Below are positions 480 through 5,599 of a stretch of DNA of 6,300 nt, piece by piece. The stretch's first letter is position 1, and the number at the start of each line of letters is the position of its first letter. This stretch comes from a virus (Duplodnaviria > Heunggongvirae > Uroviricota > Caudoviricetes). Under the pieces are notes generated by a model, which saw only the letters and a program-made list of their open reading frames with translations, did no database searches and was not told the origin of the DNA. The stretch lies in IMG/VR virus record IMGVR_UViG_648276671_000006, positions 1 through 6,300 of that record; one strand, written 5' to 3'. The translations under genes and the position numbers were made by a program.

Positions 480-511
480 CCCCACAGTGTTCAGCTATGG
501 GGTTTTATTAT
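480..511 (+). terminator. terminator-like hairpin with a plus-strand T-run, in the gap between two minus-strand genes
   Basis: CCCCACAG (480..487) pairs with CTATGGGG (495..502) with one mismatch, loop TGTTCAG, followed by TTTTATTAT on the plus strand. On the minus strand the same hairpin has no U-run after it. Confidence 0.3.
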
Positions 512-529
512 CTCCACTAACGGTGTCCG

Positions 530-748
530 CTACAAGCCCCCGGACGAATACTGCTGCACAATATCACGCAATACTGCGTGGGACACAATGCGTTCGTCAT
601 TATGCAGAGGGCGCACCCTTAATACCTTCCCCATTCGTCTCCAGACAGCTCTTTTACTATCAGGCAAACTATCCATCTCAGCAACCACTGCGCCATCAGA
701 GCGGCGAACAACTTCATATTCATGCTCCGTCAATGCGTGACTTCTCAT
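530..748 (-). CDS. hypothetical small protein (72 aa, MRSHALTEHEYEVVRRSDGAVVAEMDSLPDSKRAVWRRMGKVLRVRPLHNDERIVSHAVLRDIVQQYSSGGL)
   Basis: ATG at 748..746 with a strong AGGAGGAA 7 nt upstream. Balanced charged/hydrophobic composition. Lies downstream of the hok terminator, so it is probably a separate transcription unit or needs read-through. Confidence 0.6.
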   Translation of the reverse strand: MRSHALTEHEYEVVRRSDGAVVAEMDSLPDSKRAVWRRMGKVLRVRPLHNDERIVSHAVLRDIVQQYSSGGL

Positions 749-930
749 ATCGTATTTCCTCCTGGATCGTTACCTTCAAAATAAATCTTTCTGATAAGAG
801 AAATATAACCACCTGATGTGATTATTTCATCACCAATAATTGAGTGTTTTTTGCCCGCTCTCAATGAAATTTTTTTACGTCTGTTATCTAATCAGAAAGT
901 AGCGTGTCTTTTAAACAGTCGTTGATTTTG

Positions 931-957
931 GCAATAAAAAACCCGCCGAAGCGGGTT
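931..957 (-). terminator. rho-independent terminator of the hok transcript
   Basis: On the minus strand: AACCCGC-UUCG-GCGGGUU (plus 940..957) followed by UUUUAUUGC. GC-rich 7-bp stem with a UUCG tetraloop and U-run. Confidence 0.7.
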
Positions 958-960
958 AAG

Positions 961-1018
961 TGCGGGTGCGTTGAGGATGCCTGACACATCAGAGGTGGCG
1001 AGGGATTTCTCCCTCGCC
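961..1018 (-). promoter_or_regulatory. hok mRNA 3' elements: fbi-like box (961..976) and a perfect 9-bp hairpin (997..1018)
   Basis: The transcript here reads CCUCAACGCACCCGCA, complementary with one bulged C to the predicted 5' end UGCGGGUGCUUGAGG (1330..1316). GGCGAGGGA/UCCCUCGCC hairpin with a 4-nt loop sits just 3' of the hok stop. Confidence 0.5.
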
Positions 1019-1025
1019 TGGTCTC

Positions 1026-1181
1026 TTACTCCTCAGGTTCGTAAGCTGTGAAGACAGCGACCTCCGTCTGGCCGGTTCGGATTCGTACCTCGCAGAGGTC
1101 TTTCCTCGTTACCAGTGCCGTCACTATGACGGTTAAACAGATGACGATCAGGGCGATTAACATCGCCTTTTGCTGCTTCAT
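1026..1181 (-). CDS. hok: Hok/Gef-family type I toxin (51 aa, MKQQKAMLIALIVICLTVIVTALVTRKDLCEVRIRTGQTEVAVFTAYEPEE)
   Basis: Single hydrophobic transmembrane segment followed by the conserved RKxLCE.R...GxxEVAAF-like tail of Hok/Gef peptides. From memory it is closest to chromosomal HokD/RelF. ATG at 1181..1179 with AAGGAG 9 nt upstream. The 70-aa track ORF 1026..1238 is an in-frame N-terminal extension. Confidence 0.85.
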   Translation of the reverse strand: MKQQKAMLIALIVICLTVIVTALVTRKDLCEVRIRTGQTEVAVFTAYEPEE

Positions 1182-1227
1182 AGCCTGCTTCTCCTTGACC
1201 TTTCGGTCCGTAAGAGGCAATCTATAT

Positions 1228-1290
1228 GTGACGAGCATATAGGGGCCTCACTTCGATTTATAGTCGGGTGGGGCTTTTCTCTATCTGCCT
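1228..1290 (+). ncRNA. expected position of a Sok-like antisense RNA (approximate, not firmly located)
   Basis: By analogy with hok/sok loci, the antisense RNA should cover the leader-ORF SD (plus 1246..1251) and ATG (1236..1238). Plus-strand signals are weak: TTGACC (1195..1200), 17 nt, CAATCT; possible 3' stem 1245..1251/1268..1274 followed by TTTTCTCT. It may be degenerate. Confidence 0.2.
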
Positions 1291-1315
1291 TTGGTGGCAT
1301 GCCCGAGACAGATAG

Positions 1316-1361
1316 CCTCAAGCACCCGCAGCAATTCTACTTAACTCTCCTTTTCCCGCAA
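1316..1361 (-). promoter_or_regulatory. hok promoter and 5' tac-like box
   Basis: On the minus strand: TTGCGG (1361..1356), 16 nt, TAGAAT (1339..1334). Predicted start near 1328, giving a transcript of about 390 nt whose first 15 nt are complementary to 976..961. Confidence 0.45.
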
Positions 1362-1448
1362 ACCGTTTTTATCCCCATCGGCAAATCGAATACACCACCA
1401 GCGCCACCGCCAGTGCGATTCCTACCGTTGTGAATGCTTCAGGGCAGG

Positions 1449-1730
1449 TCATCGCAAAACATCCTCCGCGCTTATCAGTTCGTTCCGCTTCAGGTAGTCC
1501 ATCGCCTTCTCCGGTAATTTGCAGTCTGGATTAGCTTTTTTCAGTTGACTGACCAGTCGTTTAACCCACATTGTTAATTCGCCAACTTGGTTACTGGATG
1601 CTAATGGATTGTCGGCTTTACCCAGAATGACAGCACAGCAGGCCTCTTTGAGAACCCAATCAACAGCATCTTTCCATACTCCTGTTTCGACTGGTGGATT
1701 CTCACGCTTTACCTGTTCATAAAAGCGCAC
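1449..1730 (-). CDS. hypothetical protein (93 aa, VRFYEQVKRENPPVETGVWKDAVDWVLKEACCAVILGKADNPLASSNQVGELTMWVKRLVSQLKKANPDCKLPEKAMDYLKRNELISAEDVLR)
   Basis: Protein-like composition. The only start available is GTG at 1730..1728, with no convincing SD; it overlaps the upstream gene by 22 nt, so translation may be coupled. No in-frame ATG before residue 54. Confidence 0.5.
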   Translation of the reverse strand: MRFYEQVKRENPPVETGVWKDAVDWVLKEACCAVILGKADNPLASSNQVGELTMWVKRLVSQLKKANPDCKLPEKAMDYLKRNELISAEDVLR

Positions 1731-1957
1731 GGCTTTAACCAGTCCTTACGCGCCTGCTCCGAAGGAAATATCCCATGCCCCGAACCATATACTGCACCAC
1801 TGACCACCAGCTCTTTCGCCAGAACTTCTATCAGGTGTCTGGTAGCTCCGGTTTCATCTTCCAGTTGCTTACGCGTTTTCCTTCCGTCTCTGCGTACCAG
1901 TTCCACAATACGCGCCTTCAGTTGTTCCCTGTATTCAGGTGTAAAAGCGTTTCCCAT
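1709..1957 (-). CDS. small winged-helix-like protein (82 aa, MGNAFTPEYREQLKARIVELVRRDGRKTRKQLEDETGATRHLIEVLAKELVVSGAVYGSGHGIFPSEQARKDWLKPCAFMNR)
   Basis: Track ORF 1709..2014 begins at a TTG. The ATG at 1957..1955 has GAGG 5 nt upstream, overlapping the stop of the previous gene. Contains a K.T..EL....G.S...V...L...L...G.V motif also found twice in the 256-aa neighbour. Confidence 0.6.
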   Translation of the reverse strand: MGNAFTPEYREQLKARIVELVRRDGRKTRKQLEDETGATRHLIEVLAKELVVSGAVYGSGHGIFPSEQARKDWLKPCAFMNR

Positions 1958-1964
1958 AAACGCC

Positions 1965-2735
1965 TCACTTTTCCGATACAACGCGACTGGTGGAATCGAC
2001 AATCTGTCGAACAATATCCCGGTGCTTGTTCAGCTCCCGTAGCGCGGCGCAGACACGCTCCCACTTCTGGACATGGCTTTTCGCCCGACGCAGTTCACGA
2101 TTTGCCATATGCAGCGATGGTAAAATCAGGTCATCCGCTCGAGTTTCGGTGAACGATGACAACGACTGCACAATGTCCGCCACAGTTTCTGTTTTAATTT
2201 CTTCCTGTATTGCAGCTTCCTGTACAGGTAACGCAACGCCGGCTGGCTGAGGAAAGGCTTTACCATCATTTTCCGTTACCAATGCGACTTTCGGCTTTAC
2301 TGGTAAATTCTCGCCCGGCATGCAGTAGCGAAATTTACCGTTCTGGTTTACGCGTGCCAGCCGCCCCGTTGCGGTTACTACCGCCAGTGTGGAAGCAACC
2401 TTGCGAGTGCTGACACCGAACTTACCCGCCAGTTCCTCACACGTTTTAGCTCCCTCCTGACCGATAAACTCAATCATCATGTCAGCGGTAACTTTTCGTT
2501 CGACCTCCCTGGTTAACACATCTTGTGTTTCAGATTGTGCTGGCTGCTCTTCGGCTCCCCCTGATTCACCTTCGCCAGCCACACGCCAGGTGTATGCACT
2601 TTTATCAACGAAGCCAGCCTTTTTCAGTTCCCACAGCTCCTTCAGCACTTCTTCACGACTGATATCAAGTCGCGTAGTCAGTTCTACCGACGTGGCTTTT
2701 CCCATTGCTTTCAGTGCGTCAAAAACAGTCTCCAT
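1965..2735 (-). CDS. hypothetical protein with two tandem winged-helix-like motifs and a helical C-terminal region (256 aa)
   Basis: ATG at 2735..2733 with GGGAGGA 5 nt upstream; 33-nt gap after the P-like stop. Motifs [32 protein letters not shown] and [33 protein letters not shown]. No Walker A/B or nuclease motifs seen. Confidence 0.8.
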
Positions 2736-3434: not shown

Positions 3435-4263
3435 GGCTCCCCCCCTTGCTGACTGGTTTAACCTGCGCCCTGACGTGATTTACGTGACGGGCAAATTTCT
3501 GCTCCCACTGAACCTGCGTGAAAACTTTTCCCTCCTCTGCCCAGTAATCCCGGAAGGCGGCAAGTTCAGCAGGTGTAAATTCCGGCTCCGGCAAAGCCAC
3601 TCCCCACAGTGCAGCCCGCCGTCGAAAATCCGGCGACGGATACCAGTCATCGGTCATCGGAAATTTTCCGATGCGTTCGCTCAGGCCATCCAGGAATGCA
3701 GGGGGCGTTGCCTGTGACGGCAAAACTTCCCTCTCACTGGTCGGAGCACTCTCGCGTGCGTTATGTATGGGGTTTAGATCTTTAGGTTCCTTTGGGTTCC
3801 GTGATCCGTTTTTGGGTGTCTTTGATGGAAAATTTGGGTGCCTTTGGTTATTTTCTATGCTGCAAAGAGTCCCGTTTTTGGGTCTGTTTTGTGCGGAAAC
3901 ACAACCGTTTTTGGTGCTGTTTTTATTAACAGTACCAATTTTACCCACCTTTAAAGACTCCCGTTTTTGGGTGTATTCAGGCTCGGCAACACTTTCTTCA
4001 ACACCGATAAGTTGGTACACCACAATTTGCTTTGTTCGACCTTTTCTCTCACCGGTATCAACAATTAACCCAATCTCCATCAGGTGCCGTAAGCTGTCCT
4101 GCACAGTTTTTTTGTTCAGTTCCGTTACTTCTGCCAGTGCAGATACAGACGGGTATGCACACAAATCGGCACCGCACATATCAGCAAGCCAGGTCAATAC
4201 TGACTTACTGGATGAACTGCCGGTTTTCACCCTTTTAGCCCATCGTAGTGCATCGATACTCAT
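3223..4263 (-). CDS. O-like replication initiator: N-terminal HTH domain, PKNG-repeat linker, DnaT-like C-terminal domain
   Basis: Track ORF 3223..4338 starts at TTG. The ATG at 4263..4261 has GAGG 5 nt upstream ([15 protein letters not shown]...). N-terminal region resembles phage replication-initiator HTH domains; [48 protein letters not shown] resembles the DnaT C-terminal domain. Iteron-like repeats lie inside the linker-coding segment. Confidence 0.8.
3783..3976. repeat. iteron-like direct repeats (CCGTTTTTGGGTG family), putative replication origin inside the initiator gene
   Basis: Near-identical copies at 3806..3818, 3872..3884, 3905..3916 and 3961..3973, plus degenerate TTTGGGT(T/G)CC copies at 3791..3800 and 3833..3842. 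An AT-rich stretch lies at 3917..3958. On the coding strand the repeats translate to recurring PKNG. Confidence 0.55.
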
Positions 4264-5173: not shown

Positions 5174-5599
5174 ATGCAGGCTATGAACGATACCGTTAAC
5201 AATGTTTTTGCAAAAAGAATCCAGCAAGTGATGGATGAAAATGGCTGGAATAAGTCAGACCTGGCTAAGCGGGTCATGTTATCTCACACCGCGGTTCAGA
5301 ATTGGGCAAAAGGCATCAGCGTAGCCAGCGGTGTAAGATTAAAAAGGCTCGCAGCTGTAACAGGAAAGCCTGAGTACTGGTTTTTTATGGATCGGGATGC
5401 AGGAGGCGATGAAAATCACCAAGATATACCAATACCCATTGTGCTTGATGACAAAGAGAAAGCCCTGCTCTCAATTTTCAATCAAATGCCAGAAGCAGAA
5501 AAGTTACGCCTAATTATCCATGCTAAGGAAGTCCTGAGAGAGCTGGAACTGCTTAAGAGCGATGTTTTCGATATTATCAACGATCAATTAAAACCATAG
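5174..5599 (+). CDS. DicA-like HTH (XRE-family) prophage repressor, 141 aa
   Basis: N-terminal HTH SDLAKRVMLSHTAVQNWAKG; the C-terminal segment LDDKEKALLSIFNQMPEAEKLRLIIHAKEV resembles the DicA C-terminal region. No peptidase S24 (LexA-like) domain. Divergent from the Cro-like gene. The start may instead be the ATG at 5183, because the -10 TAAAAT overlaps the first ATG. Confidence 0.85.
   Translation: MQAMNDTVNNVFAKRIQQVMDENGWNKSDLAKRVMLSHTAVQNWAKGISVASGVRLKRLAAVTGKPEYWFFMDRDAGGDENHQDIPIPIVLDDKEKALLSIFNQMPEAEKLRLIIHAKEVLRELELLKSDVFDIINDQLKP

Follow-up and report, generated by a model that had tools for sequence, protein, structure and literature searches.

A hokD-type hok/mok/sok cassette in a lambdoid prophage, with a predicted 5'/3' fold-back switch in its mRNA

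The region 937..1369 of the window (the whole stretch of viral DNA analysed here, 6,300 nucleotides in length) very probably represents a type I toxin-antitoxin cassette, a hok/mok/sok locus of the hokD type in complete form. Its mRNA would be read from the minus strand, and its regulation is proposed by homology with plasmid R1's hok/sok locus. Both the system and its setting are already known: this is an ordinary prophage-borne hok/sok cassette, and there is nothing new about it as such. A long-range pairing is predicted between two elements at the ends of the mRNA, called tac (translational activator) and fbi (fold-back inhibitory) after the arrangement and the element names of the R1 hok mRNA (PMC9841398).

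A first-pass annotation, made from the letters alone, had proposed that the 5' end of the transcript (minus strand 1330..1316) is complementary, with one bulge, to a box near its 3' end (976..961). The complementarity was confirmed from the letters. The minus strand reads UGCGGGUGCUUGAGG at 1330..1316 and CCUCAACGCACCCGCA at 976..961, the latter being the reverse complement of the former with one extra C (C970); the duplex comprises 15 bp and one bulge on the 3' side. The fold of the minus-strand RNA 1330..935, which had been suggested as a check, did contain the 5'/3' pairing: the first 15 nt paired exactly with the proposed 976..961 box in both the minimum-free-energy (MFE) and the centroid folds (-171.9 kcal/mol; z = -7.7, 100 shuffles). 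When the fold was started from G1327, the tac/fbi helix was found again, with 12 bp (z = -7.0), and the pair probabilities of tac/fbi in the full transcript were 0.97-1.0. When the 15-mer was paired with the 3' part of the transcript, the best duplex had an energy of -27.3 kcal/mol, a value reached by none of 2000 dinucleotide shuffles; for the 12-mer from G1327, the energy was -21.1 kcal/mol.

The extent of the conserved pairing was analyzed on the basis of 66 distinct close relatives, 59 of which are complete. Positions 1327..1316 were invariant in these relatives. All substitutions in 976..964 were compatible with G-U pairing, i.e. the pairing was kept, and the bulged C970 was free to vary (C, T or A). 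The outer three pairs (1330-1328 with 963-961), on the other hand, showed changes at 1330, 1328 and 963..961 without compensation; the 3-bp extension of fbi to 961 is present in the window sequence and is non-conserved. Because 1327..1316 is fixed, C970 is free and the outer pairs vary uncompensated, the conserved tac/fbi helix, as judged by this alignment, is the 12-bp core of 1327..1316 with 976..964. The tac element (GGGUGCUUGAGG; 1316..1327, minus strand) is defined by this pairing and by position 1 of the Rfam RF01794 match, and the fbi element (CCUCAA-C-GCACCC with the bulged C970; 964..976, minus strand) by the folds, the duplex energies and the conservation. G1327 corresponds to position 1 of the RF01794 model, and the conserved block of hokC and F flm begins in the same register. 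From this register, the 5' end of the mRNA is probably G1327 and not 1330. The pairing postulated by the first-pass annotation was thus retained, whereas its 15-bp box and its transcript start at 1330 should be replaced by a conserved length of 12 bp and a likely start at G1327.

Since tac is invariant in the close clade, no covariation could be read there. Intact loci were gathered from Photorhabdus, an Enterobacteriaceae MAG, Franconibacter (record title Enterobacter pulveris), Buttiauxella and an Atlantibacter plasmid, together with IncI pndA, an IncK pnd-like locus, srnB and F flm. The profile of the contig scan, the pattern GCCTCTTACN{6,14}AAGGAG, was too permissive: it gave at least 120 stretches, and nearly all of those among the matches listed were chance matches. 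Six enterobacterial hok candidates were found among the matches listed; five of them showed an Rfam sok match (Photorhabdus, Franconibacter, Buttiauxella, Shigella and the Enterobacteriaceae MAG), and the sixth (L118, Escherichia sp. ESNIH1) showed none. Four R1-type plasmid copies, in which IS or other foreign DNA truncates the locus immediately upstream of hok, were unusable for tac/fbi, as were two IncHI2 copies that are likewise cut upstream of hok.

For 12 loci, we compared the first 12 nt of the leader, as defined by Rfam, with the 110 nt after the hok stop codon, and the partner was taken as the best duplex in this stop-codon-defined 3' segment. Since the partner was picked in this way, a shuffle test for each locus served as the control. 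Pairs were tabulated locus by locus from the duplex predictions, because in a MAFFT column alignment of the 5' ends and the 3' UTRs the fbi boxes were misplaced for R1, flm and srnB; this alignment was dropped. The best tac partner was located 47-58 nt past the hok stop codon in all 12 loci. The observed energy was reached by 0-3 of 1000 shuffles in eight of them and by 28-89 of 1000 in the other four. Compensatory pair changes were read in the ten loci sharing the register of the window. Two-sided changes were observed at five of the 12 tac/fbi pairs, namely at tac positions 4 (U-A to C-G), 6 (C-G to U-A in srnB), 7 (U-A to C-G in two loci, or to U-G), 9 (G-C to A-U in Buttiauxella) and 12 (G-C to A-U in Photorhabdus). 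The whole-transcript MFE folds of pndA, the pnd-like locus, srnB and flm also showed the 5' end paired with a post-stop fbi box. Little could be learned from a cross-locus matrix in which tac was set against foreign 3' regions: with G-U pairs allowed, nearly any combination of tac and fbi boxes in it could form a duplex in most cases.

That the 5'/3' complementarity is a functionless chance match has become exceedingly improbable and is effectively refuted: the 12-bp match, which has G-C-rich ends, was reached by 4 of 2000 shuffles, and the shuffle test was weak in three of the 12 loci (89, 54 and 28 per 1000), but the value of the 15-mer was reached by none of 2000, the pairing appeared in the MFE folds of every intact locus tried, the partner lies at a constant distance past the stop codon with compensatory changes at five pairs, and variation affects the bulged base but not the paired ones. 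The fold-back arrangement claimed for this mRNA, with tac and fbi as described for R1 (PMC9841398), is upheld by the MFE fold and by the compensatory changes in distant loci.

Two further structures at the 3' end had been pointed out, and both were found. A perfect post-stop hairpin of 9 bp (997..1018, minus strand), recognized in the letters and in the folds, is formed by GGCGAGGGA (1018..1010), a GAAA loop and UCCCUCGCC (1005..997). It is followed by a Rho-independent terminator (936..957, minus strand) with a 7-bp stem, a UUCG loop and a U-run. In the terminator scan, this element, AACCCGC-UUCG-GCGGGUU (957..940) and then Us, was the sole terminator-like site in 800..1500. A G+C-rich post-stop hairpin was present in 15 of 15 aligned hok loci. 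In R1, the post-stop stem-loop shields the truncated mRNA from 3' exonucleases (PMC9841398). The 9-bp hairpin corresponds to this stem-loop, which is found family-wide after the stop codon, and by analogy it would give the processed, active mRNA a protected 3' end. The two hairpins also account for a match to the Hfq-binding sRNA IsrK (Rfam RF01394) at 1017..936 of the minus strand, which at 31.2 bits was below the gathering score of 50; no link between isrK and hok was found in a literature search.

In the leader, a 5' stem-loop (1281..1315, minus strand; 1315..1306 with 1290..1281) was observed in the folds of the full-length and the growing RNA and in the Rfam consensus structure. The folds also showed an anti-Shine-Dalgarno (anti-SD) box, AAGCCCC (1270..1276, minus strand), which we call ucb following PMC9841398. 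A dcb-like box, GCCUC (1214..1218, minus strand), lies in a region, GCCUCUUAC, that is conserved across the hok family; in the centroid structure predicted for the truncated RNA, it paired with the region of the mok SD, and its assignment is tentative. The search with the Rfam sok model, another of the suggested checks, gave a full-length match to RF01794 (108 bits against a gathering score of 59; all 157 positions of the model, 1-157) at 1327..1179, but on the hok-sense strand. The consensus of RF01794 ends in SD-AUG and therefore describes the hok-sense leader. The match is thus a sign of leader homology and not a detection of the antisense RNA.

The predicted partner of tac differed with the length of the RNA. 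Within the first 30-50 nt of the nascent RNA, tac was predicted to form an 11-bp local hairpin (1325..1315 with 1309..1299), in which its partner is the 5' half of the 1281..1315 stem-loop. In the predicted fold of the full-length RNA, tac paired with fbi and ucb paired with the mok SD, the unpaired probabilities of the mok SD being 0.0 for G79, G81 and G82 and 1.0 for A80. When the 3' 42 nt were removed (RNA 1327..978), tac was predicted to move to ucb (1276..1270) and the mok SD was loosened; in the Rfam consensus, tac and ucb likewise form the outer helix. The unpaired probabilities of the mok SD in the 3'-truncated RNA were 0.24, 0.45, 0.05 and 0.04, i.e. it was only partly freed in silico, and, depending on the cut point, the fold showed either tac/ucb or the local hairpin. 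These three predicted states match the forms that have been described for the R1 hok mRNA when nascent, full-length and truncated (PMC9841398).

The hok ORF (1026..1181, minus strand) encodes 51 amino acids and is identical to HokD (RelF) of Escherichia coli K-12 in the K-12 alignment. The product matched Pfam HOK_GEF (PF01848) with an E-value of 1.2e-23 and 82.9 bits (cut-off 22), and the coding DNA was identical to that of K-12 hokD at 156 of 156 nt. The ORF is a Hok/Gef toxin gene, in agreement with the family assigned to it at first pass; that the peptide is toxic is suggested solely by its identity with HokD/RelF. Its SD, AAGGAG (1191..1196, minus strand), is evident from the letters and is kept in all aligned loci.

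The first-pass annotation had left mok and sok unplaced. In the list of open reading frames, a mok ORF of 70 amino acids (1026..1238, minus strand) is in frame with hok and contains it, and the mok SD, GAGG (1246..1249, minus strand), is located 7 nt upstream of the mok AUG. The same in-frame layout is annotated in mokW/hokW and mokC/hokC, and a 100% identical 70-aa mok product was found in 17 IMG/VR loci (L003-L017, L026). Translation of hok would, by analogy with the known systems, be coupled to that of mok.

A candidate hok/mok promoter (1334..1362, minus strand) could be read from the letters, with a -35 box TTTGCG (1362..1357), a 17-nt spacer and a -10 box TAGAAT (1339..1334). The -10 box, as TAnAAT, is retained in almost all of the 66 distinct relatives, even with unrelated upstream DNA, and the relatives carry TTGGCA in the register of the -35 box. 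For sok, alignment with hokC/sokC and 933W pointed to a candidate promoter on the plus strand (1195..1223), with a -35 box TTGACC (1195..1200), a 17-nt spacer and a -10 box CAATCT (1218..1223); the sokC promoter of K-12 reads TTGACC-17-CACTCT. Neither the hok nor the sok promoter was above the threshold in a consensus promoter scan. The candidate sok -10 box is weak, with two of six consensus matches, and the output of the antitoxin is therefore uncertain.

The putative Sok antisense RNA of about 55 nt (1230..1284, plus strand), the ends of which were transferred from the annotated sokC and sokW, would consist of a short 5' tail and a terminator-like hairpin followed by UUUUCUCUAU. Its predicted fold has an energy of -19.3 kcal/mol (z = -3.2), and its sequence could pair with ucb and with both the SD and the AUG of mok. 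The form of the candidate promoter and the proposed ends of the RNA agree with the annotated sokC and sokW in the alignment. No other part of the cassette varies nearly as much as the Sok/sokT segment, with its mean pairwise identity of 0.71; the values elsewhere are 0.98 for the toxin gene, 1.0 for tac and 94% for fbi (59 complete relatives). It occurs in at least two discrete forms, distinguished by a 23-nt indel and by a differing Sok 5' tail. It is conceivable, if rather unlikely, that the prophage hokD-type cassettes form mutually non-cross-reacting antisense specificity classes, the window belonging to a short-hairpin class. If this were the case, several hok prophages could coexist in one genome without their Sok RNAs cross-neutralising the toxins.

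Comparison with 80 prophage loci in IMG/VR showed that in most cases the homology starts at 1369 and stops at 937/938. Both break points are just outside the elements of the transcription unit, i.e. the -35 box and the U-run of the terminator. By this sequence comparison, the hok cassette is a discrete unit of 433 bp (937..1369), and the breaks give independent support to the view, already taken at first pass, that it is self-contained. The minus strand of the window represents a lambdoid early region, and a cI-like HTH repressor gene is located on the plus strand at 5174..5596. The region also carries YdaS and YdaT-like genes and genes for a DnaT-domain replication protein and a lambda-P-like protein, then DUF1627 and DUF977 genes and then the hok cassette, which is thus situated downstream of lambdoid prophage replication genes (early/nin region). 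The best coverage of the window by any E. coli genome was about 70%, at an identity of about 92%. The prophage is therefore a mosaic.

On the basis of these elements and of the R1 system, the following mechanism can be proposed. An mRNA of about 390 nt would start near G1327, and during its synthesis the 5' tac would be held in the local hairpin. Once the 3' end has been made, tac (1327..1316) would pair with fbi (976..964) and close the molecule. In the closed form, ucb (1276..1270) would cover the mok ribosome-binding site (1249..1246), and both ribosomes and Sok would be blocked; the closed full-length RNA would serve as a stable, silent reserve. Slow trimming of the 3' end back to the 9-bp hairpin, as presumed here, would strip off fbi. 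The tac element could then pair with ucb, the mok site would open, mok would be translated, and the 51-aa membrane toxin Hok would be made through its coupling to mok. If the short-lived Sok RNA (plus strand, about 1230..1284) were to bind first, toxin synthesis would be prevented and the duplex would be cut by RNase III. What the analysis itself shows are the sequence elements, with their conservation and covariation, and the alternative folds predicted for the RNA; we infer the transcript ends, the 3' processing, the expression of Sok, the toxicity and the biological role from the known systems.

It might be argued that a cassette with this sequence is a functionally silent passenger relic, transcribed yet never activated, as with those chromosomal hok loci that fail to kill upon rifampicin treatment or loss. 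According to the portion of a preprint that summarises earlier work (bioRxiv 10.1101/2025.08.07.668861), the chromosomal hokA, hokB and hokC could not mediate post-segregational killing, so that an intact sequence is no guarantee of activity. In addition, both promoters are sub-consensus, and the sok -10 box has only two of six matches. The regulatory boxes, however, are under visible constraint in the 59 complete relatives (tac invariant, coding sequence 98%, fbi 94%), and the related hokW-sokW is active (PMC8621323). Decayed copies, moreover, look different: K-12 hokD has lost its leader, the plasmid copies are truncated by IS, and the Shigella copy is frameshifted and lacks the fbi partner. 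Set against these copies, the architecture in the window appears intact and not decayed, as had been thought at first pass. A silent relic is an improbable explanation.

A different question is what the cassette is for. Its main role might be not retention but help with lysis and phage release after induction, or an abortive-infection defence against other phages. The hokW-sokW locus of the Sakai prophage Sp5 is a working type I toxin-antitoxin system; mitomycin C lowered the sokW RNA and raised HokW in Sp5, and deletion of the locus halved phage release (PMC8621323). The position of the cassette, downstream of lambdoid replication genes, is alike. For the allele of the window, the argument proceeds by analogy, and the Sok region of the window is strongly unlike sokW. 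Such a role is compatible with the proposed regulation and concerns the role only, and we regard it as a serious though not the favoured possibility. A complete cassette regulated as in R1 could, by analogy, act in prophage retention, or in lysis and phage release as for Sp5 hokW-sokW. In the portion of the preprint that reports a survey, hok is described as enriched in prophages (bioRxiv 10.1101/2025.08.07.668861).

It is worth noting that the long-range RNA switch was correctly recovered by reading the raw sequence without tools. The analysis documents the complete hokD form, of which K-12 keeps only a stump, and marks an unannotated mok ORF and putative Sok RNA beside a hokD-type gene that is annotated. 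A presumably potent toxin gene is flagged as well, one that could bear on prophage stability, on the timing of lysis and on the cloning of this region.

The locus is 97-98% identical to loci annotated as hokD in E. coli chromosomes, and 3798 of 5426 complete genomes matched at least 80% of the query; 'gef' genes of PPompW-type prophages resemble it at about 97% identity. K-12 hokD (relF) in the Qin cryptic prophage shares the lambdoid prophage setting and the coding DNA, and it is nearly the same in the SD of hok, the post-stop hairpin, fbi and the terminator, with four differences in the 3' UTR. Upstream of the hok SD, however, everything has been replaced by relBE (relE DNA), with loss of the promoter, tac, ucb, the mok start and sok. 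Since the homology with K-12 begins only at the hok SD, the window represents the complete form and K-12 hokD the stump. The Shigella copy is frameshifted and has no fbi partner. The K-12 hokC (gef)/mokC/sokC locus encodes a toxin 82% identical to that of the window; its leader is alignable throughout, its tac is identical, and the form of its sok promoter (TTGACC-17-CAnTCT) and the extent of its Sok are as proposed for the window. In contrast to the window, hokC is chromosomal and outside a prophage, and its 3' region is disrupted because IS186 sits just downstream.

The hokW/mokW/sokW locus of 933W and of the Sakai prophage Sp5 has the same gene order, the same in-frame mok and the same kind of genomic position. 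In 933W, which has annotations for mokW, hokW and the SokW RNA, tac and fbi are identical to those of the window at an overall DNA identity of 86%. The differences lie in the Sok/sokT hairpin, to which the window has 23 nt fewer, and the Sok 5' tail, the identity over the Sok overlap falling to about 40-60%, in the C-terminus of Hok (FTAYEPEE in the window, FVDYESEK in 933W) and at the 3' end, where the 933W copy is without a canonical terminator hairpin directly after fbi. R1 hok/sok (parB) and F flm differ more widely: their toxin is only 39% identical to that of the window, their tac is one nucleotide shorter (GGCGCUUGAGG), their leader is longer, and they are plasmid-borne with proven post-segregational killing. 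Nevertheless, they contain the set of elements assigned to the window, namely tac, ucb, the mok SD, dcb, fbi, the post-stop hairpin, the terminator and Sok, and their tac has the same three alternative partners in the predicted folds (PMC9841398).

The variability of the hok transcript was analyzed across the window and the related prophage loci L001-L082. The mean pairwise identity of the segment overlapped by the antisense RNA Sok (1230..1284) was 0.71, whereas those of the coding sequence and of tac, the 5' element of the hok mRNA, were 0.98 and 1.0, respectively. In this set, no other part of the transcript varies as much as the Sok-overlap segment. Two discrete forms of the segment exist; the hairpin found in phage 933W is 23 nt longer than that of the window form.

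The window and 933W (L001) also differ at the 3' end of the transcript. Homology between the two ends immediately past fbi, the 3' pairing partner of tac, and no window-like terminator hairpin was found directly 3' of fbi in 933W (approximately 1950..1990 of that locus). The 3' end of the hokW mRNA must therefore be formed in a different manner. In the window, the hok 3' UTR (936..1017, minus strand) consists of a post-stop hairpin, fbi and the terminator. The Rfam model of isrK aligned to this segment over the full model length at 31.2 bits (E-value of about 2e-5 to 8e-5), which is below the gathering score of 50 bits. IsrK is a prophage-encoded sRNA of Salmonella. The match could reflect a remote kinship of IsrK with hok 3' ends, or it could merely reflect two similar hairpins.

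At its other boundary, the hok cassette directly adjoins the stop codon of an unannotated ORF (1369..1452, minus strand) that encodes a hydrophobic peptide of 27 aa, MTCPEAFTTVGIALAVALVVYSICRWG. The start codon of this ORF overlaps the TGA of a 93-aa ORF upstream (ATGA, 1452..1449). Conservation of the peptide extends to 13 related prophage loci, 933W being one of them. The ORF is broken by a stop codon in one locus, L007, and in another, L019, it has a GTG start and lacks a stop codon.

Five tandem hok leaders, spaced by roughly 0.5-1 kb on one strand, were found in Photorhabdus luminescens (L132, 3450..6710). At least three of the five are each accompanied by an intact hok ORF and by a tac/fbi pair of their own. 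For the leaders at 4130 and 4634, neither a hok ORF of the expected length nor a convincing fbi partner was found. A hokC-like locus of Shigella flexneri (L134, 1127..1600) has a good Rfam leader match (85.7 bits), a scrambled Hok reading frame, and a tac for which no fbi partner was found in the locus. This locus is an example of a decayed hok copy.

In four of the plasmid loci taken for comparison (L203, L205, L212 and L213), the leader of hok is cut by the end of an IS3-family element, …TGTCCAACTTT(T/C)TGGGGTC(A/T)GTACA. The junction lies at almost the same point in each (approximately 480..530 per locus). In these four, the promoter, tac and the anti-SD box ucb have been lost, and mok/hok is left in place. 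In L204 and L206, unrelated DNA beside an integrase/IS481-like gene begins still nearer to hok. The disarming of the plasmid hok loci is either recurrent or inherited.

UACG is the motif for A-to-I editing by TadA. The hok allele of the window retains this motif at codon 47 (Tyr47), where UAC is followed by G (1040..1043, minus strand). According to a survey of Hok, the corresponding Tyr codon is recoded to Cys in the hokC, hokD and hokE mRNAs (bioRxiv 10.1101/2025.08.07.668861).
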